Shown one piece after another: positions 32,378-50,597 of a stretch of 64,000 nucleotides of DNA; position 1 is the first letter of the stretch, and the number at the start of each line of letters is the position of its first letter. A program made the translations under genes and the position numbers. The stretch is taken from NCBI RefSeq assembly GCF_055900595.2, contig NZ_CM148325.1, one strand, 5' to 3'. The notes beneath the pieces were generated by a model. The model was not told the DNA's origin and made no database searches. It saw only the letters and a program-made list of their open reading frames with translations.

Positions 32378-32626
32378 ATGTGTATTGGCGTTCCAGGCCA
32401 GGTGCTGGCTGTCGGTGAAGATATTCACCAGCTTGCGCAGGTTGAAGTATGTGGTATCAAGCGCGACGTGAATATCGCCCTGATTTGTGAAGGTAACCCT
32501 GCCGATCTGCTGGGCCAGTGGGTGCTGGTACACGTCGGATTTGCCATGAGCATCATCGACGAAGATGAAGCCAAAGCCACATTAGACGCGCTGCGCCAAA
32601 TGGATTACGACATTACCAGCGCGTGA
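32378..32626 (+). CDS. hybG: Hydrogenase maturation factor HybG (HypC family)
   Basis: 82-aa ORF starting MCIGVPGQV (HypC N-terminal Cys2 motif). Confidence 0.9.
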
Positions 32627-32635
32627 TGATTAGCT

Positions 32636-32822
32636 TTCGTAGGCCTGATAAGACGCGACAGCGTCGCATCAGGCATTGTGCACGATTGCCGGATGCGGCG
32701 TGAACGCCTTATCCGGCCTACCGTTCGGGTGCCGATTGTAGGCCTGATAAGACGCGGCAGCGTCGCATCAGGCATTATGCACGATTGCCGGATGCGGCGT
32801 GAACGCCTTTTCCGGCCTACCT
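32636..32822. repeat. Tandem REP/BIME elements between convergent hybG and yghU
   Basis: Two near-identical ~85-bp units (GTAGGCCTGATAAGACGCG.CAGCGTCGCATCAGGCATT.TGCACGATTGCCGGATGCGGCGTGAACGCCTT.TCCGGCCTAC). Confidence 0.7.
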
Positions 32823-32857
32823 CGGCCTGGATGGCTTGCTGCGACGAACACCAACCC

Positions 32858-33724
32858 TTACCCCTGACGCTTATCTTCCGTATTCGTCTCGAAATCACTG
32901 GCGTCATGGCGTTCATGCAACTGCTCGTTCAGCGGTCCGTTGGTGCGGTTAACAATACGCCCACGCTTCACCGCCGGACGTTCGCCCACTTCTTTCGCCC
33001 AGCGTTGCACATGTTTATAACTTCCCGCATCCAGAAACTCTGCGGCATCATACACGCCGCCGAGCACCACGTTGCCAAACCACGGCCAAATCGCCATATC
33101 CGCAATGGTGTACTCATCGCCCGCAACAAACTTATGCTGCGCCAGTTGCTTATCCAGCACGTCGAGCAGGCGCTTGGCTTCCATAGTAAAGCGGTTGATG
33201 GCGTACTCAATTTTCACCGGCGCGTAATGGTAAAAGTGACCAAAACCACCGCCGAGGAACGGCGCGGCACCCTGTAACCAGAACAGCCAGTTCAGCGTTT
33301 CAGTCCGTTTTGCCAGATCCTGCGGCAGGAAGTAGCCAAATTTCTCCGCCAGATAAAGCAGAATCGATCCAGACTCAAACACGCGGATCGGCGGAGTATG
33401 GGTATGGTCGCGCAGCGCCGGGATCTTCGAGTTTGGGTTCACTTCGACAAAGCCGCTGGAGAATTGATCGCCATCGCCAATACGAATCAGCCAGGCGTCG
33501 TACTCTGCACCAGTAACGCCCAGCGCCAGCAGCTCCTCAAGCATAATCGTTACTTTCTGACCGTTCGGCGTTCCCAGTGAATAGAGTTGCAGCGGATGTT
33601 TGCCCACCGGCAGCGTTTTTTCATGCGTCGGACCAGAAACCGGGCGATTGATATTGGCGAACGCGCCGCCAGCGGATTTATCCCACGTCCAGACTTTCGC
33701 GGGCTGATAAGTATTGTCTGTCAT
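32858..33724 (-). CDS. yghU: Nu-class glutathione S-transferase-like protein YghU
   Basis: Start at ATG 33724 (MTDNTYQPAKVWTWDKSAGG..., 288 aa). Confidence 0.9.
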   Translation of the reverse strand: MTDNTYQPAKVWTWDKSAGGAFANINRPVSGPTHEKTLPVGKHPLQLYSLGTPNGQKVTIMLEELLALGVTGAEYDAWLIRIGDGDQFSSGFVEVNPNSKIPALRDHTHTPPIRVFESGSILLYLAEKFGYFLPQDLAKRTETLNWLFWLQGAAPFLGGGFGHFYHYAPVKIEYAINRFTMEAKRLLDVLDKQLAQHKFVAGDEYTIADMAIWPWFGNVVLGGVYDAAEFLDAGSYKHVQRWAKEVGERPAVKRGRIVNRTNGPLNEQLHERHDASDFETNTEDKRQG

Positions 33725-37579: not shown

Positions 37580-37590
37580 CCTTCCTGAAA

Positions 37591-37626
37591 ATGCCCGGTC
37601 CTGGCGATCGGGCATTTCCATTTTTG
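37591..37626. terminator. Hairpin between convergent pitB and yghT
   Basis: ATGCCCG...CGGGCAT stem followed by TTCCATTTTT. Confidence 0.4.
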
Positions 37627-37627
37627 A

Positions 37628-38320
37628 CTAGTGATAACCACGCGCGGTCATAAAATCCGTAATCGCTTTTTCTGCATCAACCAGCACCTTTTCCAGTGGC
37701 TGATTAGCATCGATATCAACCAGTTGTGCACCGCCAAAGGTTAACTGTGGCGTTATGGCAATCTTCCTCGCCAGCGATTCCCGTTTATGGTCGGGTTTAC
37801 GCGCGCAGGCAACTTCAAGGTCAACATTGAGTTTGATGACCAGATCAGGTTTATGGCTCGCCATCCAGTGAAACGCTTTACGTTCCTGGCTTGCCAGCCA
37901 TGAGACAAACCGGCCGCCTTCAACGTTAGGCGGGAACACTGTACCATCGTAAGCGCCAGGAATTTGGTCCTGAGGATAACGGTCGGTTAGAACAATTAAC
38001 CCGCGACGACGACAGGCAAGCATATGACGAAAGCGCAGTAAGCGACGGGCGACAAACGCTGTAATTACCAGCGCCGGAACTGGCCCAGGCAATTTTTTTG
38101 CTGTTTTCACCTGATTTCGTTCAATTGTTTTATGTAAGGATTTTCCCATCAACGGTAATTTTGTCACTGCACGACCGACATTTCCGGCCTGTTTTCCTAA
38201 ATGAACTCTTTCGGCAGCACCATATTTTTCGACAACGGTAATGAGATGTTCACACACCGTTGACTTGCCTGAACCATCGCTACCAATAACGGCAATTAAT
38301 GGAGGTGTTATTGACTGCAT
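37628..38320 (-). CDS. yghT: P-loop kinase-like protein YghT (thymidylate-kinase-like fold)
   Basis: 230-aa ORF; Walker [13 protein letters not shown]-type motif (LTDRYPQ); paralogous to the next two genes. Confidence 0.8.
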
Positions 38321-38493
38321 GAATATATCCTTTAATTTAAATATCCATTAAAAATATTTATTTGGTTAATATGTTTTTATGAAAGCGTAATTCAGGTCAA
38401 TGTCACAATTAACCATTGTCACAATAAGGTTGAACGGATATTCTGAGCACGGACCACGTAATATTCAATACATTATTTGCTGCCGGGTTTTTC

Positions 38494-39207
38494 GTGAATC
38501 AACGTAATATGTCAATAATTAATTCCACGCCAGTGCGTGTTATTGCCATTGTAGGATGTGATGGTTCAGGTAAATCGACCCTCACGGCAAGCCTGGTAAA
38601 TGAACTGGCAGCAAGAATGCCAACAGAACACATTTATCTCGGGCAATCGTCCGGGCGAATTGGCGAATGGATTTCACAGCTCCCTGTTATTGGCGCACCT
38701 TTTGGGCGTTATTTGCGAAGTAAAGCGGCACATGTGCACGAAAAGCCCTTAACACCGCCTGGCAATATTACTGCGCTGGTTATCTATCTGCTTTCCTGCT
38801 GGCGGGCGTACAAGTTTCGCAAAATGTTGTGTAAAAGCCAGCAAGGCTATCTGCTCATCACCGACCGCTACCCGCAGGTTGAAGTGCCGGGTTTTCGCTT
38901 TGATGGCCCGCAATTGGCAAAAACCACGGGCGGTAACGGCTGGATAAAAATGTTAAGGCAGCGCGAGCTGAAGCTGTACCAATGGATGGCGTCTTATTTG
39001 CCCGTATTGTTGATTCGTCTTGGCATTGATGAACAAACCGCGTTTTCGCGTAAACCTGACCATCAACTGGCGGCGTTACAGGAAAAAATCGCCGTTACGC
39101 CGCAACTGACATTCAATGGCGCCGGGATCCTTGAACTGGATGGTCGGCAACCAGCCGATGAAATTATGCAAGCGTCACTACGCGCAATTCACGCCGCGCT
39201 TTCCTGA
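38494..39207 (+). CDS. yghS: P-loop kinase-like protein YghS
   Basis: 237-aa ORF; Walker A GCDGSGKST, ITDRYPQ; paralogue of YghT/YghR. Confidence 0.8.
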   Translation: MNQRNMSIINSTPVRVIAIVGCDGSGKSTLTASLVNELAARMPTEHIYLGQSSGRIGEWISQLPVIGAPFGRYLRSKAAHVHEKPLTPPGNITALVIYLLSCWRAYKFRKMLCKSQQGYLLITDRYPQVEVPGFRFDGPQLAKTTGGNGWIKMLRQRELKLYQWMASYLPVLLIRLGIDEQTAFSRKPDHQLAALQEKIAVTPQLTFNGAGILELDGRQPADEIMQASLRAIHAALS

Positions 39208-39238
39208 TCACCAAAATGGATAGGGGATGATTTAACGA

Positions 39239-39997
39239 ATGGATGCACTACAAACACAAACTGTTAATAGTACAACCGTGCCGCAGCCCAACTACATTCC
39301 GGGGCTGATTGCGGTGGTCGGGTGTGATGGCACCGGTAAATCCACGCTGACCACCGACCTGGTGAAATCGCTGCAACAACACTGGCAAACCGAGCGCCGC
39401 TATTTGGGGCTGCTCTCCGGCGAAGACGGCGACAAAATCAAACGATTGCCGTTGGTTGGCGTCTGGCTGGAACGGCGACTGGCGGCCAAATCCTCGAAAA
39501 CCCAAAGCATGAAAACCAAATCTCCAGCGCTATGGGCGGCGGTGATTATGTACTGCTTCTCGCTGCGAAGAATGGCGAATCTACGCAAGGTTCAGCGACT
39601 GGCGCAAAGTGGCGTTCTGGTGGTCAGCGATCGCTTCCCGCAGGCTGAAATTTCGGGCTTTTATTATGACGGACCGGGGATTGGCGTCGAGCGCGCGACC
39701 GGGAAAATCAACCAATTTCTGGCGCAGCGCGAGCGACAGTTATACCAACAAATGGCGCAGTATCGTCCTGAATTAATCATTCGTTTGGGGATTGATATTG
39801 ATACTGCCATCTCCCGCAAGCCTGACCATGACTATGCCGAGCTGCAGGACAAAATCGGCGTCATGTCGACGATTGGCTATAACGGCACAAAAATTCTTGA
39901 GATTGATTCCAGAGCGCCCTACAGCGAAGTGCTGGAACAGGCACAGAAGGCGGTTTCTCTGGTTGCCATCGTTTCTGACCGCCGAAGTTTAACTTAA
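39239..39997 (+). CDS. yghR: P-loop kinase-like protein YghR
   Basis: 252-aa ORF; Walker A GCDGTGKST, VSDRFPQ; paralogue of YghS/YghT. Confidence 0.8.
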   Translation: MDALQTQTVNSTTVPQPNYIPGLIAVVGCDGTGKSTLTTDLVKSLQQHWQTERRYLGLLSGEDGDKIKRLPLVGVWLERRLAAKSSKTQSMKTKSPALWAAVIMYCFSLRRMANLRKVQRLAQSGVLVVSDRFPQAEISGFYYDGPGIGVERATGKINQFLAQRERQLYQQMAQYRPELIIRLGIDIDTAISRKPDHDYAELQDKIGVMSTIGYNGTKILEIDSRAPYSEVLEQAQKAVSLVAIVSDRRSLT

Positions 39998-40042: not shown

Positions 40043-41392
40043 TTGGCGGGTTTTAACATCAAACATTGGTTTGCAGATGGCGCGTTTCGCACCATTATTC
40101 GCAATAGCGCCTGGTTAGGCTCCAGTAATGTCGTGAGCGCTTTGCTGGGTCTGTTGGCGCTCTCGTGTGCCGGTAAAGGGATGACGCCCGCCATGTTTGG
40201 CGTACTGGTGATTGTGCAATCGTACGCCAAGTCGATCAGCGATTTTATTAAGTTTCAGACATGGCAGTTGGTGGTGCAGTACGGAACGCCAGCCTTGACC
40301 AACAATAATCCGCAGCAATTTCGCAATGTCGTCTCATTTTCCTTCTCGTTGGATATCGTCAGCGGCGCGGTGGCGATTGTCGGCGGCATTGCCTTACTCC
40401 CTTTTCTTTCCCATTCATTAGGTCTGGATGACCAAAGCTTTTGGCTGGCAGCGCTGTATTGCACGCTCATTCCTTCAATGGCTTCCTCCACGCCGACCGG
40501 CATTCTGCGTGCGGTAGATAGCTTCGACTTAATTGCTGTACAGCAGGCGACGAAACCTTTTCTGCGCGCAGCGGGGAGCGTCGTTGCCTGGTATTTTGAC
40601 TTTGGTTTTGCGGGTTTTGTTATTGCCTGGTACGCCTCGAATCTTGTTGGCGGCACCATGTACTGGTGGTTTGCCGCACGTGAATTACGCCGCAGAAATA
40701 TCCATAACGCGTTCAAATTGAATCTGTTTGAGTCTGCCCGACACATCAAAGGCGCGTGGAGTTTTGTCTGGTCAACCAACATTGCCCATTCCATCTGGTC
40801 GGCGCGTAATTCGTGCAGCACAGTGTTGGTGGGGATCGTGTTAGGACCCGCTGCCGCCGGGTTATTTAAAATCGCCATGACATTCTTCGACGCCGCCGGA
40901 ACGCCAGCGGGTTTACTAGGTAAAAGTTTTTACCCAGAGGTGATGCGTTTAGATCCGCGCACCACCAGACCGTGGTTGTTAGGCGTGAAGTCCGGTTTAC
41001 TGGCGGGCGGAATCGGTATTCTGGTGGCGCTCGCGGTGTTGATCGTCGGCAAGCCGCTCATTTCGCTGGTGTTTGGCGTTAAGTATCTCGAAGCGTATGA
41101 CCTGATTCAGGTGATGCTGGGCGCAATTGTGATTTCGATGCTGGGCTTCCCACAGGAGTCATTGCTATTGATGGCGGGAAAACAGCGTGCTTTTCTCGTG
41201 GCGCAAACCATCGCCTCAATCGGCTACATCGTATTGCTGTTCATGTTCTGTCATCTGTTTGGCGTGCTGGGGGCTGCATTTGCTTACTTCGCTGGGCAAT
41301 GTCTGGATGTGGTGCTCTCGCTAATTCCAACCTTAAAGGCATTTTTTCAGCGCCATTCCTTGCTTTATAACGCAGCCGGAGAGAAATCCTGA
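40043..41392 (+). CDS. yghQ: Polytopic membrane protein YghQ (MOP/Wzx-like flippase family), full length here
   Basis: 449-aa ORF with about 12 predicted TM helices; TTG start as given by the ORF track (true start uncertain); stop overlaps the next ORF (TGATG). Confidence 0.75.
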   Translation: MAGFNIKHWFADGAFRTIIRNSAWLGSSNVVSALLGLLALSCAGKGMTPAMFGVLVIVQSYAKSISDFIKFQTWQLVVQYGTPALTNNNPQQFRNVVSFSFSLDIVSGAVAIVGGIALLPFLSHSLGLDDQSFWLAALYCTLIPSMASSTPTGILRAVDSFDLIAVQQATKPFLRAAGSVVAWYFDFGFAGFVIAWYASNLVGGTMYWWFAARELRRRNIHNAFKLNLFESARHIKGAWSFVWSTNIAHSIWSARNSCSTVLVGIVLGPAAAGLFKIAMTFFDAAGTPAGLLGKSFYPEVMRLDPRTTRPWLLGVKSGLLAGGIGILVALAVLIVGKPLISLVFGVKYLEAYDLIQVMLGAIVISMLGFPQESLLLMAGKQRAFLVAQTIASIGYIVLLFMFCHLFGVLGAAFAYFAGQCLDVVLSLIPTLKAFFQRHSLLYNAAGEKS

Positions 41393-42228
41393 TGATGAGA
41401 AAATATTTCCCGCTTGAGGCTAGCGAGCGTCTATTTGTTGCGATTGAAGAAGATGATGTCGTTGATGCACAGGTCAGTTTGCCGCCGACTATCGCACTAA
41501 GTTGTACCACCGAAATCATCCATGATAATTACGCGTTATGCCTGAAATTCTGGCTGGATGGTGTTAATCGTCAGGAGCTACTGCGTTTAATCCGCAAACA
41601 GGCGAAAGGCGATGAGCTGACGACAGACGAGCGCAAAAAGTATAAATACATGCGAGCGCGCTACAAGCATCTGCGCTTTGCGCAACGGCTGTATTTAAAG
41701 AAGCATCAGGCCGGATTTTTATTCGGCAAAACGACCGTTTTTTTGGGGCGTTTTCAGGACGGCTTTCGTAACGGTAAGAAAAATATTGTGTCGTATTACG
41801 GCAACCTGTTACGGGTTTATTTAAGCTCTCCGGTCTGGTCGTTGGTGAACTATTCATTACGCCATAGCCAGTTAGAAAGCGTAAGCGGTTTTATTGCCTA
41901 TCGGCAAAAGCAAATGCATACCCTGAAAGAGATAATTGCCAAACCGCGACTAACTGGCAGGGAATTTCATGATGTGCGAAAAATCATCAGCCAGCAGGTT
42001 TCTTATTACGACACCCTAAGATCGCTTGATCCTGAAAATAAAGAGGCGTTACAGATTTCCCGCTTCCTCGCCGCCATTAATGGCCTGATGGGGGATAAAC
42101 ACGACGACATGGTGGCGGATGATATGGAAAACCGCCAGTCGTATGATGCACCGATGGCGCTGGATAGCGATATTCGTCAGCGCTTAGAACTGCTGATTTC
42201 GCGTTTCCCACTCTATCCGGAGCAATAA
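41392..42228 (+). CDS. Hypothetical soluble protein (278 aa), coupled to yghQ
   Basis: Start overlaps the yghQ stop; stop overlaps the next start (TAATG); no motif recognised by eye. Confidence 0.6.
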   Translation: MMRKYFPLEASERLFVAIEEDDVVDAQVSLPPTIALSCTTEIIHDNYALCLKFWLDGVNRQELLRLIRKQAKGDELTTDERKKYKYMRARYKHLRFAQRLYLKKHQAGFLFGKTTVFLGRFQDGFRNGKKNIVSYYGNLLRVYLSSPVWSLVNYSLRHSQLESVSGFIAYRQKQMHTLKEIIAKPRLTGREFHDVRKIISQQVSYYDTLRSLDPENKEALQISRFLAAINGLMGDKHDDMVADDMENRQSYDAPMALDSDIRQRLELLISRFPLYPEQ

Positions 42229-42788
42229 TGCCATCTCGTTGGATTTTCGCTCTGATCATCGCACTCTTAGCGCCAGGCGCGGTGGCACACAATTTCGTCA
42301 CTGGTAAAACGGTTACCCCTGTTTATATCCAGGAAGGCGGTGAGTTGCTTCTGAATAGCGACGACGAAATTCACTACCAAAAGTGGAACAGCACACAGCT
42401 GGCGGGAAAAGTCCGCATTATTCAGTATATCGCCGGGCGTAAGTCGGCGAAGAAAAAGAACTCACTGTTAATTAAAGCGGTTGAAGCGGCAAACTTTCCG
42501 CAGGATCGTTTTCAGCCCACCACCATTGTGAACACCGATGATGCCATCTTTGGTACCGACTATTTTGTCGTTGGCAAAATCGAAAAAAATAAACGCCGCT
42601 ATCCATGGGCGCAATTCGTTATTGACGGCAATGGACAGGGACGTGTTGCCTGGCGCTTGCCGGAGCAGAGTTCAACCATTCTGGTGCTGAATAAAAACGG
42701 GCAAATTCAGTGGGCAAAGGACGGCAGCCTGACGCCGGAAGAGGTAGATCATGTCATTGCGCTGGCGCAGAAGCTGATCAATGAATAA
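42228..42788 (+). CDS. Secreted/periplasmic protein (186 aa), possibly YtfJ-like
   Basis: Cleavable signal peptide MPSRWIFALIIALLAPGAVAHN; translationally coupled to the upstream ORF. Confidence 0.6.
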   Translation: MPSRWIFALIIALLAPGAVAHNFVTGKTVTPVYIQEGGELLLNSDDEIHYQKWNSTQLAGKVRIIQYIAGRKSAKKKNSLLIKAVEAANFPQDRFQPTTIVNTDDAIFGTDYFVVGKIEKNKRRYPWAQFVIDGNGQGRVAWRLPEQSSTILVLNKNGQIQWAKDGSLTPEEVDHVIALAQKLINE

Positions 42789-42818: not shown

Positions 42819-43889
42819 ATGAAGCTGGTTGAACACTACATCATGCGTGGTACGCGCCGTCTGGTGCTGATTATCGTCGGTTTTCTGATCTTTATTTTCG
42901 CCAGCTACTCCGCACAGCGTTATCTGACCGAAGCGGCAAATGGGACATTAGCTCTTGATGTTGTGCTGGATATCGTTTTCTACAAAGTGCTGATTGCACT
43001 GGAGATGCTGTTACCTGTTGGACTATATGCTTCAGTTGGCGTGACGCTAGGGCAAATGTATACCGACTCGGAAATTACCGCTATCTCCGCGGCGGGGGGC
43101 AGTCCGGGACGCTTGTACAAAGCCGTTCTTTATCTGGCGATACCGCTAAGTATTTTTGTCACCCTTCTGTCGATGTATGGTCGTCCGTGGGCTTATGCGC
43201 AGATTTATCAACTGGAGCAACAGTCACAGTCGGAGCTGGATGTTCGCCAGTTGCGGGCAAAGAAATTTAACACTAACGATAACGGACGAATGATCCTTTC
43301 GCAGACGGTTGATCAGGATAATAATCGCCTGACTGACGCGCTGATTTATACTTCTACTGCCAATCGAACCCGCATTTTCCGCGCCCGTTCGGTTGATGTG
43401 GTTGACCCATCACCTGAGAAACCGACCGTTATGTTGCATAACGGGACCGCCTATCTTCTCGATCATCAGGGGCGTGACGACAACGAACAGATCTACCGTA
43501 ATCTGCAATTACATCTGAATCCGCTGGATCAAAGCCCTAACGTCAAACGCAAAGCAAAATCGGTCACGGAGCTGGCGCGCTCCGCCTTTCCTGCCGATCA
43601 TGCCGAACTGCAATGGCGACAAAGCCGTGGCCTGACAGCATTGTTGATGGCGCTGCTGGCCATTTCATTAAGTCGGGTAAAACCGCGGCAAGGGCGATTT
43701 TCAACGTTATTGCCACTGACGTTGCTGTTTATTGCCATTTTTTATGGCGGCGACGTCTGCCGTACGCTGGTGGCTAACGGCGCGATTCCCCTCATTCCTG
43801 GTTTGTGGTTAGTACCCGGACTCATGCTAATGGGCCTGCTGATGCTGGTCGCACGCGACTTCTCTTTGCTGCAGAAATTTTCCCGATGA
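42819..43889 (+). CDS. LptF/LptG-family (YjgP/YjgQ) permease paralogue, first of a pair
   Basis: 356-aa ORF with N-terminal MKLVEHYIMRGTRRLVLIIVGFLIFIF resembling LptF/LptG; predicted TM helices flanking a periplasmic domain. Confidence 0.7.
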   Translation: MKLVEHYIMRGTRRLVLIIVGFLIFIFASYSAQRYLTEAANGTLALDVVLDIVFYKVLIALEMLLPVGLYASVGVTLGQMYTDSEITAISAAGGSPGRLYKAVLYLAIPLSIFVTLLSMYGRPWAYAQIYQLEQQSQSELDVRQLRAKKFNTNDNGRMILSQTVDQDNNRLTDALIYTSTANRTRIFRARSVDVVDPSPEKPTVMLHNGTAYLLDHQGRDDNEQIYRNLQLHLNPLDQSPNVKRKAKSVTELARSAFPADHAELQWRQSRGLTALLMALLAISLSRVKPRQGRFSTLLPLTLLFIAIFYGGDVCRTLVANGAIPLIPGLWLVPGLMLMGLLMLVARDFSLLQKFSR

Positions 43890-44965
43890 ATGTTTTCAGC
43901 CGCTATTTAATCCGTCATCTCTTTCTCGGTTTTGCCGCCGCCGCAGGGCTATTGCTGCCGCTTTTTACCACCTTCAACCTGATTAACGAACTGGATGATG
44001 TCGGCCCGGGCGGTTATCGCTGGACCCAGGCGGTGCTGGTGGTGCTGATGACCTTACCGCGCACACTGGTCGAACTTTCGCCGTTTATCGCCTTATTGGG
44101 AGGGATTGTCGGCCTGGGGCAACTATCGAAAAACAGTGAGCTTACCGCCATTCGCAGCACGGGGTTTTCTATCTTCCGTATTGCACTGGTGGCGCTGGTT
44201 GCCGGGATATTGTGGACTGTTTCGTTAGGCGCGATAGATGAGTGGGTGGCGTCGCCATTGCAGCAACAGGCGCTGCAAATCAAATCGACTGCCACCGCGT
44301 TGGGGGAGGACGATGACATTACCGGCAATATGCTTTGGGCCAGGCGCGGTAATGAATTTGTGACGGTGAAATCGCTGAACGAGCAGGGCCAGCCTGTGGG
44401 CGTGGAGATATTTCATTATCGCGACGATCTCTCGCTCGAATCCTACATTTTTGCACGCAGTGCCTCCATTGAAGACGACAAAACATGGATCCTGCATGGT
44501 GTGAATCATAAAAAATGGTTGAATGGCAAAGAAACGCTGGAAACATCAGATAATCTTACCTGGCAATCGGCCTTCACCAGTATGAATCTTGAAGAGTTAT
44601 CGATGCCGGGAAATACTTTTTCTGTCCGTCAACTTAATCATTACATCCATTATTTGCAGGAAACTGGGCAACCCAGCAGCGAATACCGCCTTGCACTGTG
44701 GGAAAAACTGGGACAACCCATCCTGACCCTGGCGATGATTTTGCTGGCTGTGCCGTTTACCTTTAGTGCCCCGCGTTCGCCTGGGATGGGTAGCCGTCTC
44801 GCTGTAGGCGTCATCGTGGGCTTACTTACCTGGATCAGCTATCAAATCATGGTCAATCTGGGATTGCTATTTGCGTTGAGCGCACCTGTTACCGCGCTCG
44901 GTTTACCGGTAGCGTTTGTGCTGGTGGCGTTGAGCCTGGTGTATTGGTATGACAGACAACATTAA
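43886..44965 (+). CDS. LptF/LptG-family (YjgP/YjgQ) permease paralogue, second of a pair
   Basis: ATG at 43886 overlaps the upstream stop (ATGA); MNVFSRYLIRHLFLGFAAAAGLLLPLFT... typical LptG-like N-terminus; 359 aa. Confidence 0.7.
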   Translation: MNVFSRYLIRHLFLGFAAAAGLLLPLFTTFNLINELDDVGPGGYRWTQAVLVVLMTLPRTLVELSPFIALLGGIVGLGQLSKNSELTAIRSTGFSIFRIALVALVAGILWTVSLGAIDEWVASPLQQQALQIKSTATALGEDDDITGNMLWARRGNEFVTVKSLNEQGQPVGVEIFHYRDDLSLESYIFARSASIEDDKTWILHGVNHKKWLNGKETLETSDNLTWQSAFTSMNLEELSMPGNTFSVRQLNHYIHYLQETGQPSSEYRLALWEKLGQPILTLAMILLAVPFTFSAPRSPGMGSRLAVGVIVGLLTWISYQIMVNLGLLFALSAPVTALGLPVAFVLVALSLVYWYDRQH

Positions 44966-44999
44966 ACCCGCCGTGGCGCAACACCACAGCGGGCTCACA

Positions 45000-46172
45000 T
45001 TACTGCTTCAGAGTAGCGAACGCTTGAATGATGGCATCAATTTGCTCACGACTGTGGGCAGCGTTTACGCTACAGCGCAGCAGCGTGATGCCTGCAGGCG
45101 CGGCAGGTGGCAGGATAAGATTCACATAAACGCCCAGCGAAATAAGCTCGCGCCAGATGCGTAAACCTTCCTCTTTCGAACCGATTATTACTGGCACTAC
45201 CGGGCTAATATGTGAACTTAACTCATAATCCAGTTTTTGCAGACCGTCATACAGATGGTTGGCATTATCCATCAGCTTTTGCCGCAACTCTGGTTGTGAG
45301 GCAATGGTTCTTAACGACGAGCGCACGGTCGCAATGCAGGACGGAGAAGGAGAGGCGGTAAAAATATACGGGCGGCTGCCGTAGCGCAACACTTCCATCG
45401 CTTCCGAACCGACAGCAAAACCGCCAATCGAGGCCAGACTTTTACTGAAGGTACCAACGATAATATCCACATCATCTTCAACGCCAACGGCTTCAGCCAG
45501 TCCGCGCCCCGTTGCGCCTAACACGCCAAACGAATGCGCTTCATCGACAATCAAATAACCACCGAGACGACGTTTGATATCAACAATTTCCGCCAGCGGC
45601 GCAACGTCACCGAGCATACTGTAGATGCCTTCAACGATGATAATCGCCTCTTTTGCCCGTTCACCGAGGCGAACCATGCGCCGTTCCAGATCTTTAGCAT
45701 CGTTATGGCGGAAACGAATAATTTCCGCGCCACCGAGAGAACAGGCGTCATAAATACTGGCGTGGCTGTCGGCATCCAGTAACACCACGGCGTTATGGTC
45801 GGCAAGTGCGCTGATGACGCCTAAATTAGCGGTATAACCGGTTGAAAAAACGATAGCGGTAGGGCGATTAAAAAACTCGGCGATCTCTTTCTCTAACGCC
45901 AGATGCGGCGCATAACTGCCGTTTGCCATACGAGAACCGGTGGTGCCGGTGCCTTGGGCCGCTAACGCTGCCTGACCTTCGGCGATGGCATCATGATTAA
46001 AGGTTAAACCGAGATAATTATTGGTCCCGGCCAGAATCACTTTTTTATTGCCGATCCGACCTTCGGTGGCGGAATACACTTCATCAATACAGGTGCCAAA
46101 CGGTGTTAACCCGTTGTCACTAAATTGCAGTCGCTCGCCAGCAAGGCGCGCATATTTATCGTATAGCCCCAT
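45000..46172 (-). CDS. PLP-dependent alpha-oxoamine synthase, serine-palmitoyltransferase-like
   Basis: 390-aa ORF with PLP-lysine motif GTFSKSLASIGG and DEAHSFG motif characteristic of SPT/KBL/BioF enzymes. Confidence 0.8.
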   Translation of the reverse strand: MGLYDKYARLAGERLQFSDNGLTPFGTCIDEVYSATEGRIGNKKVILAGTNNYLGLTFNHDAIAEGQAALAAQGTGTTGSRMANGSYAPHLALEKEIAEFFNRPTAIVFSTGYTANLGVISALADHNAVVLLDADSHASIYDACSLGGAEIIRFRHNDAKDLERRMVRLGERAKEAIIIVEGIYSMLGDVAPLAEIVDIKRRLGGYLIVDEAHSFGVLGATGRGLAEAVGVEDDVDIIVGTFSKSLASIGGFAVGSEAMEVLRYGSRPYIFTASPSPSCIATVRSSLRTIASQPELRQKLMDNANHLYDGLQKLDYELSSHISPVVPVIIGSKEEGLRIWRELISLGVYVNLILPPAAPAGITLLRCSVNAAHSREQIDAIIQAFATLKQ

Positions 46173-46420
46173 TATTTATTCTCCAGCCATGGAAGTAGTG
46201 TTTCCATTAATTGCGCAGGGGTTTTGACATCCAGCAGAATATTAATAGGAATGGAAATATCGAATCTGTCTTCCAGCATCATTAAGAGATCCATCACTTT
46301 GATCGACTCCAGGCCAAGATCGTTGACGAGATCGCTGTCGGGCTTAATTTCCACACCGTTTTCGACCAAATCCTGTAAACAGGAAAGGATGTAATCCATT
46401 ACTATTTCACGATTTACCAT
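46172..46420 (-). CDS. Dedicated acyl carrier protein
   Basis: 82-aa acidic ORF with phosphopantetheine-site motif DLGLESI; stop overlaps the SPT-like gene start. Confidence 0.75.
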   Translation of the reverse strand: MVNREIVMDYILSCLQDLVENGVEIKPDSDLVNDLGLESIKVMDLLMMLEDRFDISIPINILLDVKTPAQLMETLLPWLENK

Positions 46421-46451: not shown

Positions 46452-47366
46452 TCAAAATAGCCCGTTGCGTAATGCGTGTTCCAGGCTAATCCCGGGAAAC
46501 CAATTAATATCTTCAGAAATACGGTTATTACTTGCTGACCAGTCGGCGTGGGTTAATTCACGGATTTTCGAGCGGGTCAGCATAGGTTCTTTACCTGCCA
46601 GGCGACTCAACGCGGTACTGATATCCGCAAGGCAGGTGAGTACCGACAGAGGAATACCAACCATTCGAACGGAACCGCAACGGGCGTCGGCGGCAAGTTG
46701 CTGTACGCGTTGCCAGTCATAGCCGCCGGCGACGCCATCGCATAATTCATAGGTTTGCGTCTGTACAGTTTCGGCGCTTAACCACTGCCCCACGGCTTGC
46801 GCGAAATCGGTGACGTGCAGGAAAGAGAGCTGTGTATCTGGCGCACCAAGTCGTGGCAGCAGGCCGCGCAGCATCCAGTCAAACAGCGGTTTTAACTCTT
46901 TATCGCCGGGACCATACACGGCTGTCGGGCGAAAAATGCCCAGCGTAATTTCGTCAGCCATTGCGGTCAGTCGTTGTTCGGCGACGTGTTTGGAATTTGC
47001 GTACCAGGAGAGTTCGGGATGACGCGCCGCCAGCGAAGAGATAAACAGAAAACGTTGGCAAAAGCCGCTCTCTTTTGCCGCTTGCATCAGGCGCAGGCTG
47101 CCGTCAACGTTACAGCGGGTAAAAATCTCTTCTTTGTGTCCGCGCACTTGTCCGGCGCAATGGACCACCGCGCTGGCTCCGGCAACCAGTTCGCTAAGCG
47201 AATGTGTATCTTCCAGCGAACCGCGCACCCAGATGAGATTATCATTGACGTGAGCGCGGGCAGTACGCGTCAATGCGCGAACGTGAAAGCCGCGGGCGAG
47301 CAGGTTATCGATAATATATTTACCGATAAACCCGGTAGCGCCCGTCACCGCGACAGTTTGATTCAT
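46452..47366 (-). CDS. NAD(P)-dependent epimerase/dehydratase-family reductase (extended SDR)
   Basis: 304-aa ORF with Rossmann motif VTGATGFIGKYI and YxxxK motif (YANSK); start overlaps the FAAL stop (ATGA). Confidence 0.75.
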   Translation of the reverse strand: MNQTVAVTGATGFIGKYIIDNLLARGFHVRALTRTARAHVNDNLIWVRGSLEDTHSLSELVAGASAVVHCAGQVRGHKEEIFTRCNVDGSLRLMQAAKESGFCQRFLFISSLAARHPELSWYANSKHVAEQRLTAMADEITLGIFRPTAVYGPGDKELKPLFDWMLRGLLPRLGAPDTQLSFLHVTDFAQAVGQWLSAETVQTQTYELCDGVAGGYDWQRVQQLAADARCGSVRMVGIPLSVLTCLADISTALSRLAGKEPMLTRSKIRELTHADWSASNNRISEDINWFPGISLEHALRNGLF

Positions 47367-49084
47367 GCCAGGGATTCCTGCACATGAAGGCTTGCAGCAT
47401 AAGCCTTCTGATAACGTTTTTTCGCTTCCGCACGGGCAGGCTTGCCGGAGGACGTTCGGGGAATACTGTGGGGCGGCAACAGATCGATAGCCGCGGTTAC
47501 GCCAAATTCGCTTTGGATCCGTGCTGCCAGTGCGTGGATAAGCTGCCCACGACGTTCTTCGTCGCTGATCCTACACTGGATCTGCAGAATGATTTTTTCC
47601 TGGGCGGTAACAAAAGCAATCGCATCGCCAGAATGAATTTCCGGTTCCTGTTCCGCAATATATTCAATATCCTGCGGCCAGATATTACGGCCACGAATAA
47701 TAATCAGATCTTTAATGCGTCCGGTGACATACAGATAACCGTCCAGCAGATAACCGAGGTCGCCGGTATCTAACCAGCCCGTCGCGGCAATCTCGTCTTG
47801 CGAAACCTGGTCGCCAAAGTAACCGCTCATCAGGCTGGGGCCGGAGATGCAAATATGGCCTACCACACGTTCCGCGACCGGCATACCTGCTTCATTGCGG
47901 ATTTCAATGCCATGTTCCGGCAACGCTTTACCGCAGTTGACGAAAGTCGATACGGCGCGTGTTTCAGCACCCGGCGCGACGGCTTTGCCCTGATATTCAA
48001 GGATGTCGCGATCCACTTCGTTAACCACAACCCCGGAGGCTTCATCAGAGAAGCTGACAGCCAGCGCATTTTCTGCCAGTCCGTAGCACGGCATGAACGT
48101 TTTATCGTCAAAGTTAACCTGACGGAAACATTCAGCGAATTGATGGAGTTGTTCTGCGGAGATGGGTTCTGCACCAATACCAGCGACGCGCCAGCAGGAA
48201 AGATCCAGTTCAGCGAGATCTTTTTCATTCACGCGGCGCTGGCACAATTCATAGCCAAACGGCGGCGCAACGGAAACGGTGCCGCGATTTTTACTGATCA
48301 ATTTAAGCCATTGCAGAGGACGCATGGCAAAATCCTGAGTGCGCAAATAATCTACTGAAAGCTGCGTGGCGACGGGGGTCAGGAGAAAGCCGACCAGTCC
48401 CATATCATGGTAGAAAGGCAGCCAGGAGACGCAGCGGTCGCCAGGGCGTAATTTAATGCCATCGTGGCTTATAGCACGTAGATTAGCCATCACTTCGCGA
48501 TGGGTGATAATGACGCCACGGGGAAAACGGGTGCTGCCGGAGGTGTACTGGAGGTAGGCGATATCGTTCGGAACTGGATGCTGGAGTGCAACATCGGCTT
48601 CCGGTAATGCCTTAAACCAGGCGTGGCTTAAAACATGTAATTCGGGGTTGTTATGCGTAGCGGCATTGACCAGTGGCAACCACTCATCACCAGTGATAAT
48701 GGCTGCGGGCTGGCAACTTGCCAGTAAACCCTGCAGTTTGGCGCTCCAGGAATCCCGCTGACCGATGCCCATTGGAATCGCCAACGGGACGGCGACTAAG
48801 CCGGCATACTGGCAGGAAAAAAAAGCCTCTACGAACCCGCTACTGGTTTCGGCAATCAGCGCCACGCGATCGCCTTTTTTCAGGTTCAGCGATAACAACC
48901 GCTTCGCACCAGCTTCGGCACGCGCTTTTAACGTCTGATATTCCAGTTGATCTTCAAGTTGGCAACGTCTGTCATAAAAATTCATTCCGGCGCTACTCAG
49001 AGCGGCGTAGTCCAAAGCATCAACCAGCGTTGGAAAATCGGCATAGCGCATAGGTAGGGAATGCGTAAAGATTTTATTAGACAT
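47363..49084 (-). CDS. Fatty acyl-AMP ligase / acyl-ACP synthetase (FAAL-type adenylating enzyme)
   Basis: Start set at ATG 49084 (MSNKIFTHSLPMRYADFPTL...; the ORF track's 49111 start is TTG); AMP-binding motif YTSGSTRFPRGV resembling FadD32-type FAALs. Confidence 0.8.
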   Translation of the reverse strand: MSNKIFTHSLPMRYADFPTLVDALDYAALSSAGMNFYDRRCQLEDQLEYQTLKARAEAGAKRLLSLNLKKGDRVALIAETSSGFVEAFFSCQYAGLVAVPLAIPMGIGQRDSWSAKLQGLLASCQPAAIITGDEWLPLVNAATHNNPELHVLSHAWFKALPEADVALQHPVPNDIAYLQYTSGSTRFPRGVIITHREVMANLRAISHDGIKLRPGDRCVSWLPFYHDMGLVGFLLTPVATQLSVDYLRTQDFAMRPLQWLKLISKNRGTVSVAPPFGYELCQRRVNEKDLAELDLSCWRVAGIGAEPISAEQLHQFAECFRQVNFDDKTFMPCYGLAENALAVSFSDEASGVVVNEVDRDILEYQGKAVAPGAETRAVSTFVNCGKALPEHGIEIRNEAGMPVAERVVGHICISGPSLMSGYFGDQVSQDEIAATGWLDTGDLGYLLDGYLYVTGRIKDLIIIRGRNIWPQDIEYIAEQEPEIHSGDAIAFVTAQEKIILQIQCRISDEERRGQLIHALAARIQSEFGVTAAIDLLPPHSIPRTSSGKPARAEAKKRYQKAYAASLHVQESLA

Positions 49085-49454: not shown

Positions 49455-50597
49455 ATGGAATGCGATCTGCTGATGATTAAAATTGAAAAAGTAATTAATA
49501 AAAATGACCTTAAGGCATTTATCGCTTTTCCGTCATCACTTTATCCCGACGATCCAAACTGGATACCCCCTTTATTCATTGAACGCAACGAGCATTTGTC
49601 TGCGAAAAATCCGGGGACGGACCATATCATCTGGCAGGCGTGGGTGGCAAAAAAAGCCGGGCAGATAGTTGGGCGAATTACCGCGCAAATCGATACCTTG
49701 CACCGTGAGCGTTACGGTGAAGATACCGGTCATTTCGGCATGATTGACGCCATTGATGATCCGCAGGTTTTTGCCGCGTTGTTTGGCGCAGCGGAAGCGT
49801 GGTTGAAGTCACAAGGTGCAAGTAAGATCAGCGGTCCTTTCAGCCTGAATATCAATCAGGAAAGCGGATTACTGATTGAAGGTTTCGATACACCACCCTG
49901 TGCGATGATGCCGCACGGTAAACCGTGGTATGCCGCGCATATTGAACAATTGGGTTATCACAAAGGCATTGATTTACTAGCGTGGTGGATGCAGCGAACC
50001 GATCTCACTTTCTCTCCGGCGCTAAAAAAACTGATGGATCAGGTGCGTAAGAAGGTGACCATTCGCTGCATCAATCGCCAGCGGTTTGCCGAAGAGATGC
50101 AGATCCTGCGTGAGATTTTCAACTCTGGCTGGCAGCACAACTGGGGATTTGTGCCGTTTACCGAACATGAATTCGCGACTATGGGCGATCAACTTAAATA
50201 TCTGGTGCCGGACGATATGATCTACATCGCTGAGATTGATTCTGCACCCTGCGCGTTTATTGTTGGCTTGCCAAACATCAACGAGGCGATTGCCGATCTG
50301 AACGGATCGCTCTTTCCCTTCGGCTGGGCAAAATTGCTGTGGCGTTTAAAAGTCAGCGGTGTGCGAACTGCGCGAGTACCGCTGATGGGCGTGCGGGACG
50401 AGTATCAGTTTAGCCGCATCGGCCCGGTGATTGCGCTGTTATTGATTGAAGCCTTACGCGATCCGTTTGCCCGCCGGAAGATCGATGCGCTGGAAATGTC
50501 ATGGATCCTCGAAACCAATACAGGCATGAATAACATGCTGGAACGCATTGGGGCAGAGCCGTACAAGCGTTACCGATTGTATGAAAAGCAGATTTGA
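49455..50597 (+). CDS. yghO: YghO, acyl-CoA N-acyltransferase-like protein, apparently full length
   Basis: 380-aa ORF (alternative start at ATG 49473); recognised as the full-length counterpart of the K-12 yghO remnant. Confidence 0.7.
   Translation: MECDLLMIKIEKVINKNDLKAFIAFPSSLYPDDPNWIPPLFIERNEHLSAKNPGTDHIIWQAWVAKKAGQIVGRITAQIDTLHRERYGEDTGHFGMIDAIDDPQVFAALFGAAEAWLKSQGASKISGPFSLNINQESGLLIEGFDTPPCAMMPHGKPWYAAHIEQLGYHKGIDLLAWWMQRTDLTFSPALKKLMDQVRKKVTIRCINRQRFAEEMQILREIFNSGWQHNWGFVPFTEHEFATMGDQLKYLVPDDMIYIAEIDSAPCAFIVGLPNINEAIADLNGSLFPFGWAKLLWRLKVSGVRTARVPLMGVRDEYQFSRIGPVIALLLIEALRDPFARRKIDALEMSWILETNTGMNNMLERIGAEPYKRYRLYEKQI

Follow-up and report, generated by a model that had tools for sequence, protein, structure and literature searches.

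We analysed a stretch of 64,000 nucleotides (contig NZ_CM148325.1 of RefSeq assembly GCF_055900595.2; the whole stretch is called the window here) and found that three of its genes, yghT, yghS and yghR, encode paralogous P-loop proteins, predicted to have the thymidylate-kinase fold, that accompany genes for sphingolipid synthesis, flipping and export. Because the three genes travel with these partners, their products most likely phosphorylate that lipid. The reading that we favour, and to which we give about an even chance, is that YghT, YghS and YghR form a head-group module with a neighbouring CHAD-like protein, and that this module phosphorylates ceramide or its phosphate, which is then flipped and exported. 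Together with the flippase gene yghQ, these are genes that have long stood without an assigned function in the best-studied bacterium.

Identity and predicted fold of YghT, YghS and YghR

The window is Escherichia coli chromosome, with 100% identity over 5.3 kb to FDAARGOS_448 and other strains, and yghT, yghS and yghR are the annotated names in the matching strains. We assigned yghT to 37628-38320 on the minus strand from its open reading frame (ORF) and motifs (230 amino acids; T group), yghS to 38494-39207 on the plus strand (237 amino acids; S group) and yghR to 39239-39997 on the plus strand (252 amino acids; R group); all three are predicted P-loop kinases of the thymidylate-kinase fold. 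An earlier note on this DNA had described three paralogs of 230-252 amino acids, and ORFs lie exactly where it placed them, with pairwise BLASTP E values of 1e-46 to 1e-61. T and S are 36% identical (E 3e-52), T and R 34% (E 1e-46) and S and R 41% (E 1e-61), a similarity far above chance that, at the level of sequence, makes them clear paralogs. The three motifs that the note attributed to all of them, namely the Walker A motif G[SC]DG[ST]GKST, DR[YF]PQ and [AS]RKPDH, are invariant columns in a three-way alignment. Its statement that they lack LSGGQ and are not built like ATP-binding cassette (ABC) ATPases also held. Motif searches of the three sequences detected neither an LSGGQ-like ABC signature nor a GGDG motif, and both ABC ATPases and LpxK were missing from the top 60 structural matches of YghS, with which Foldseek concurred.

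Searches against family models gave weak scores. Pfam returned P-loop-level noise and no significant match for the three proteins (best, Thymidylate_kin at E 0.012), the NCBIfam model TIGR00041 scored 25.4, 24.9 and 31.8 bits (E 1e-5 to 1e-7) against a curated cutoff of 83.25, and PDB searches with two profiles (A1 and A2) found weak thymidylate-kinase matches at E 5e-4 to 1e-3. An AlphaFold model of YghS was built from 14 homologs (pLDDT 79, pTM 0.75), and we found that the core fold of the T/S/R type superposes on solved members of the P-loop nucleoside monophosphate kinases and thymidylate-kinase-like proteins. Deoxynucleoside kinases, the NadR kinase domain and adenylate kinases ranked behind the best matches of this model. 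Furthermore, hhalign aligned the family with E. coli Tmk at 90.7% probability over 191 columns, pairing the P-loops with each other, DRY with DRH, and RKPDH with the LID segment RARGELDR. In the same alignment PQVEVPGFRFDG stands opposite DLSTQAYQGG of Tmk with no residue conserved, in a part that is aligned with low confidence.

Model, structure search and hhalign thus agree on a fold inside the kinase families. The fold and the motif alignment, together with scores below cutoff and an apparently unconserved thymine-contact stretch, argue that YghT, YghS and YghR, as modelled, are thymidylate-kinase-fold phosphotransferases and not thymidine monophosphate (dTMP) kinases. The RefSeq product name 'dTMP kinase' for yghS and yghT is probably an over-annotation. 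Each of the three proteins is strongly basic (net +8 to +13) and carries, after strand 2, an insert that is cationic and mildly amphipathic; these features fit binding to an anionic membrane surface and lend it weak support.

Linkage to a sphingolipid synthesis and export locus

Related loci were collected by a scan of one genome per species, which yielded 80; 53 of these were fully flanked, with at least 7 kb on each side, and the proteins of the window were compared with the loci by tblastn. The sources were Enterobacterales (Serratia, Erwinia, Pantoea, Citrobacter, Hafnia, Rosenbergiella and others), Xanthomonadales (Rhodanobacter, Luteibacter, Dyella), Carnimonas, several betaproteobacteria, Halioglobus, Sphingobium and Novosphingobium. 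We found spt, the serine palmitoyltransferase gene, inside the fetched flank of 55 of the 80 loci. Of the fully flanked loci, which come from other species, 45 of 53 have spt no farther than about 10 kb from the kinases; the two enterobacterial exceptions were truncated contigs. The flippase gene yghQ was present in 62 of the 80 loci and the gene for the CHAD-like protein of 278 amino acids in 57. In Serratia the spt operon is found upstream of yghT, in E. coli and Erwinia it is found downstream of lptG2, and it occurs in either orientation, which indicates that the linkage outlasted rearrangement. In these loci the kinases are thus not distributed independently of the spt operon, and, with a fold inside the kinase families, the earlier note's interpretation of them as kinases linked to a lipid is supported.

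The three genes have also remained distinct. In almost every locus an S-type gene was followed, in fixed order, by an R-type gene, which always lay directly 3' of it, and most loci also had a T-type gene. Orthologs from beta-, gamma- and alphaproteobacterial loci were 50-58% identical to their E. coli counterpart, compared with about 35% between paralogs. In a survey of 197 orthologs (67 R, 61 T and 69 S), Walker A, DR[YFW]PQ and RKPDH were preserved in essentially all members of every group: DR[YFW]PQ was kept in 67 of 67 R, 69 of 69 S and 57 of 61 T proteins, and the T group had Walker A in 61 of 61, DR[YF]PQ in 57 of 61 and RKPDH in 61 of 61. The sequences therefore look like three ancient orthologous groups, each seemingly catalytically competent, and an ancient triplication in which all copies have kept the catalytic motifs suggests that each protein has a task of its own. 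What the analysis shows directly is the fold, the catalytic motifs, the three groups and the linkage to spt, flippase and exporter.

Two of the loci, one in a Martelella alba record (L028) and one in a metagenome-assembled Pseudomonas sp. (L021), carry the full gene set at about 70% identity to the enterobacterial-type locus, which suggests horizontal transfer, contamination or mis-binning. We also considered pitB as a functional partner and dismissed it, since it adjoins yghT in only about 10 close relatives.

Among 5426 complete E. coli genomes, 4743 carry the kinases and 4183 carry the spt operon. In K-12 MG1655 (L089, 6147-7341) the insertion sequence IS5 stands in place of the segment from the 3' end of yghQ through the start of yghO, so that yghQ is truncated and the kinases are left orphaned. 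The context of the kinases was concealed in K-12 because IS5 had deleted the neighbouring sphingolipid genes. In one clinical isolate (L001, 18382-19079), IS1 truncates the LptF paralog and the locus is missing beyond it.

In the window, the genes adjoining the kinases are a sphingolipid synthesis and export set, and the 'lipid locus' beside which the earlier note placed the kinases is a sphingolipid synthesis and export locus. From yghS through lptG2, neighbouring genes lie no more than 45 bp apart or overlap at their stop and start codons, with yghS at the head of the string. After yghR come a full-length yghQ-like flippase gene of the MOP family (40043-41392, plus strand; 449 amino acids; NCBIfam MOP flippase match, Pfam Polysacc_synt_3 in orthologs), the gene for the 278-amino-acid protein (41392-42228, plus strand; annotated 'hypothetical', all-helical, rich in His, Arg and Lys, and divergent CHAD-like) and a YtfJ-family gene (42228-42788, plus strand; TIGR01626 at 210 bits, over cutoff). 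The YtfJ-family gene occurs in 37 loci, only closer and mostly enterobacterial ones, and in no distant locus. The string continues with an LptF paralog, taken as an LptF2-type sphingolipid exporter permease from its annotation as LptF and the role of its counterpart in Caulobacter (42819-43889, plus strand), and an LptG2-type LptG paralog (43886-44965, plus strand, RefSeq coordinates), both with Pfam LptF_LptG in orthologs, and closes at a strong 16-pair hairpin (44963-44997) that lies where lptG2 and spt converge and is likely a two-way terminator. In Caulobacter, sphingolipid is exported by the LptF/LptG paralogs of loci of this kind together with the housekeeping LptB, according to a preprint that also depicts the locus of E. 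coli UTI89 (bioRxiv 10.64898/2026.04.12.717747). The RefSeq product 'LPS (lipopolysaccharide) export ABC transporter permease LptF/LptG' for the pair at 42819-44965 looks like an over-annotation.

Converging on lptG2 is the operon of spt (45000-46172, minus strand; from its ORF and annotation), acpR for a specialised acyl carrier protein (46172-46420, minus strand), an epi/cerR-type gene for an NAD-dependent reductase (46452-47366, minus strand) and aasR for an acyl-ACP synthetase, annotated as fatty acyl-AMP ligase (47363-49051, minus strand, from the RefSeq start; the mechanical ORF extends beyond it to 49111). It is followed by yghO for dihydroceramide N-acyltransferase (49455-50597, plus strand). 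The last three of the operon genes and yghO follow annotation and Padilla-Gomez et al. (PMC9386255), who described five genes of E. coli BL21, ECD_02850 to ECD_02854, as the set for dihydroceramide synthesis and assayed Spt, AcpR and AasR of E. coli. The fifth dihydroceramide gene, the N-acyltransferase gene yghO (ECD_02850), is named aca in that paper and cerS in PMC11324152. It had no NCBIfam match in our searches, and in K-12 (L089, 5044-6216) it is annotated as a 'putative DNA-binding transcriptional regulator', in contrast to the N-acyltransferase of PMC9386255.

On the other side, yghT is divergent from yghS across an AT-rich spacer of 173 bp (38321-38493). A sigma-70-like match lies at 38416-38444 on the plus strand; it is a consensus match only, and the count of such matches was no higher than in shuffled sequence. 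Between the convergent pitB and yghT there is a strong 12-pair hairpin (37589-37617) that, like the one at 44963-44997, is probably a two-way terminator. Farther away, in the hybG-yghU interval (32605-32916), near-identical peptide text recurs in ORFs of both strands (…RRIRQSCIMPDATL…RLIRPT…), which is typical of repetitive extragenic palindromic (REP) sequences and bacterial interspersed mosaic elements (BIMEs).

Candidate substrates and alternative readings

In the reading that we favour, the ceramide core would come from Spt, AcpR, AasR, the reductase and YghO. The soluble YghT, YghS and YghR would then add phosphate, with ATP as the donor, to ceramide hydroxyls or to ceramide phosphate at the cytoplasmic face of the inner membrane. 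The MOP flippase YghQ would flip the resulting anionic phospho-sphingolipid, and LptF2 and LptG2, presumably with LptB, would extract it toward the outer membrane. Kinase action in vivo, a lipid acceptor, and the number, order and positions of the phosphates are what we infer.

The distant loci provided one line of evidence on the product. We clustered the ORFs of all 80 loci and found neighbour families that distant loci add: an OlsC/LpxO-like acyl 2-hydroxylase (18 loci), an LpxE-like PAP2 phosphatase (14), an LpxF/UppP-like PAP2 protein (8), an LmtA-like lipid A 1-phosphate methyltransferase (8) and an LptA-like protein (5). Examples are found in L054-L088, in L057 (792-1340, 1515-2198 and 2905-3648) and in L051 (11533-12291). 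These additions belong to the bacterial toolkit for remodelling the phosphates and acyl chains of lipid A, which points to a phosphorylated lipid product. A family of proteins of about 171 amino acids also recurs in the distant loci.

The head group itself was approached through the enzymes that accompany the kinases. The annotation of the E. coli locus contains no glycosyltransferase, CDP-alcohol transferase, nucleotidyltransferase or diacylglycerol kinase (DAGK)-type kinase, and a motif scan of the 80 loci found a single CDP-alcohol-transferase-like ORF, which did not come from Escherichia. E. coli is not among the species listed with the Caulobacter cpg pathway (PMC11324152). With neither a glycosyltransferase nor a CDP-alcohol transferase annotated, and with E. 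coli unlisted for cpg, phosphate would be the most economical head group.

Remote relatives pointed to the envelope as well. At E values up to 1e-3 we found 2323 cluster representatives in which the kinase-like region is a C-terminal domain, with an NTP_transf_5 nucleotidyltransferase, a MOP flippase or a GT4 glycosyltransferase as fusion partner (P0165-P0267). Fused relatives lie in Wzx/Wzy-type polysaccharide loci (L090, L092 and L093), often followed by a second small P-loop protein; the genomic context of P0165 and P0174 was uninformative. The MOP and GT4 fusions in Wzx/Wzy loci tie the wider family to membrane-linked envelope precursors that are handled by MOP flippases, and make an acceptor linked to the membrane look likely.

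The 278-amino-acid neighbour is predicted, from its structural superposition, to have a CHAD-like, polyphosphate-binding fold, and its gene is linked to the kinases. Two helical bundles of the protein superpose on solved CHAD domains, and binding is a prediction. The match to PF05235 was not significant (best E 0.089, in 1 of 11 homologs), and a sequence-profile search of the PDB with this protein found nothing. We also considered that it might be the split-off N-terminal nucleotidyltransferase domain of the fused relatives, an idea that we rejected at an hhalign probability of 0.5%.

Several observations weigh against direct phosphorylation of ceramide by these proteins. The literature that we searched reports no substrate, product or phenotype for YghT, YghS or YghR and no native E. 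coli sphingolipid. Enzymes of the thymidylate-kinase fold normally use soluble nucleotides, and no membrane anchor is predicted in the three proteins. In addition, spt was missing within 10 kb in 8 of the 17 fully flanked non-enterobacterial loci, including those of Sphingobium and Novosphingobium; sphingolipid genes are known to be scattered in the Sphingomonadales S. wittichii and Z. mobilis (PMC11324152). Keio knockouts of yghQ, yghR, yghS and yghT had at most a small change in survival in one screen, a result that says little because K-12 has no spt operon. A lipid kinase of the YegS/DAGK type (GGDG) lies directly beside the T/S/R genes in 3 of the 80 loci (L021, 8816-9877; L063, 2670-3809; L082, 5378-6421), so the three proteins need not include the first ceramide kinase. 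Coexistence of both kinase types suggests that T, S and R do not simply stand in for a CpgB-type enzyme and may act after one. Finally, ceramide offers two hydroxyls, or three with acyl hydroxylation, so that three kinases would require chained phosphates or a further acceptor.

Chained phosphates would be the outcome if T, S and R acted one after another to extend a ceramide phosphate chain to a di- or triphosphate or longer, with the CHAD-like protein as scaffold, a version of events that we consider improbable. It would involve phosphate-onto-phosphate chemistry, which is typical of thymidylate kinases and PPK3. The lipid-anchored product would be flipped by the MOP flippase, as pyrophosphate-linked lipids are, and passed by LptF2/G2 to the outer membrane. 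If true, it would represent a new class of highly anionic surface lipid in most E. coli strains and many other proteobacteria.

Among the alternatives to phosphorylation of the lipid, the one that survives best, at perhaps one chance in five, is that the kinases act on a soluble precursor of the head group (a small alcohol, an acid or a nucleotide-like compound) that is joined to ceramide later, which would make them members of the pathway and not lipid kinases. All characterised enzymes of this fold among the structural matches use small soluble substrates, the N-terminal NTP_transf_5 domain of many remote relatives recalls activation pairs of a kinase and a nucleotidyltransferase, and in Caulobacter the head group is made from activated phosphoglycerate (PMC11324152). 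However, neither annotation nor the motif scan of the 80 loci revealed a recognisable transferase in the E. coli-type locus for attachment to ceramide, and the MOP flippase fusions tether the kinase domain to the membrane.

Second, T, S and R might be a polyphosphate module like PPK3, that is, a hetero-oligomer with the CHAD-like protein that makes or uses a phosphate chain, either as a donor or on the lipid. We think this doubtful, to the same degree as a phosphate chain extended on ceramide. In none of the three groups has the arginine of the DRX motif been lost, and we saw no ppx or sixA among the conserved neighbour families, not all of which are identified, nor in the annotation of the E. 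coli locus. The PPK3-related protein ST1543 was outside the top 60 in PDB sequence searches, in which canonical thymidylate kinases scored best, and structural similarity did not favour it over ordinary thymidylate kinases either. E. coli, moreover, already has PPK1.

The remaining two explanations are poorly supported. The three proteins could, as ATPases or regulatory subunits, drive or gate either the flippase or the exporter LptF2/G2, given that the locus has no LptB-type ATPase and that S and R share a gene string with the flippase and the permeases. This is quite unlikely, since Caulobacter LptF2G2 bind the housekeeping LptB (bioRxiv 10.64898/2026.04.12.717747). The fold is that of nucleoside monophosphate kinases, with no ABC signature and no ABC ATPase in the top 60, the DRX and LID motifs for phosphotransfer are strictly preserved, and some loci, for example in Xanthomonadales, have the kinases with no lptF2/G2 nearby. 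That the proteins are true dTMP or other nucleotide kinases with a coincidental position in a lipid locus is very improbable: the RefSeq names and the weak TIGR00041 matches speak for it, but against it stand scores of 25-32 bits under a cutoff of 83.25, a Pfam Thymidylate_kin match that is not significant, an apparent lack of conservation in the thymine-contact segment of Tmk after DRX (DLSTQAYQ), a linkage that holds in three proteobacterial classes and takes in spt, the flippase and the CHAD-like protein, and the viability of yghR, yghS and yghT knockouts as opposed to the essential canonical tmk, which is located elsewhere in E. coli.

Significance and comparison with known systems

The genes discussed here were already catalogued, and the sphingolipid core and Lpt paralogs of E. 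coli are part of the recent literature, mainly through Caulobacter studies. For the UTI89 locus our search found only the 2026 Lpt preprint. The searched literature assigned no role to YghR, YghS, YghT or the CHAD-like protein; papers that mention yghR, yghS or yghT do so in gene lists, a knockout-survival table and a site for FlhDC from systematic evolution of ligands by exponential enrichment (SELEX), with no function assigned. No paper that we found joined 'sphingolipid' and 'thymidylate kinase'. We rate these proteins as a thymidylate-kinase-fold family that may have been recruited to lipid head-group chemistry, a functional parallel of CpgB and LpxK with a fold unrelated to that of CpgB. 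If phosphorylation of the sphingolipid is correct, they would be a new class of lipid-phosphorylating enzymes with the thymidylate-kinase fold, unrelated to CpgB and to eukaryotic ceramide kinases. Their product would be an anionic lipid new to the outer membrane, shared by pathogenic as well as commensal E. coli, by Serratia, Erwinia and Pantoea and by many proteobacteria of the environment, and cationic peptides such as polymyxins could plausibly find a new target or receptor in it. The analysis also corrects two likely database over-annotations, 'dTMP kinase' and 'LPS export permease LptF/LptG'.

Compared with Tmk, the three proteins carry about 20-30 extra residues between strand 2 and the long helix, a region of low model confidence; they show no apparent conservation of the thymine-contacting segment, score far under the family cutoffs and occur among lipid and envelope genes and not in a context of nucleotide metabolism. 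They differ from the deoxynucleoside kinases dCK, dGK and dNK in having no family match at the sequence level. LpxK, the lipid A 4'-kinase, sets a precedent for the role proposed here: it is a P-loop kinase whose substrate, a membrane lipid, is phosphorylated at the cytoplasmic face ahead of Lpt-type export. However, it is anchored in the membrane by its N terminus, its P-loop subfamily architecture differs, and it did not appear in the top 60 structural matches of YghS.

Archaeal PPK3 (Saci_2019/Saci_2020; PMC12995831) resembles this system in that several thymidylate-kinase-like paralogs are encoded with a CHAD-type protein, and the cPPK3 homolog ST1543 (2plr/5h70), which has the same fold, was among the top structural matches. 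In contrast to PPK3, whose regulatory subunit has lost the DRX arginine, there are three paralogs here that all retain it, and their setting is a sphingolipid synthesis and export locus. The ceramide kinase CpgB of Caulobacter (PMC10331486), with which the earlier note had suggested a comparison, turned out to be unrelated in fold: CpgB belongs to the GGDG type of sphingosine kinases and DAGK, whereas YghT, YghS and YghR have a P-loop fold in which GGDG is absent. The likeness to CpgB is one of role, since CpgB, a kinase that is soluble and cytoplasmic, is encoded in a bacterial sphingolipid locus and makes an anionic sphingolipid, which is the role that we propose for YghT, YghS and YghR.

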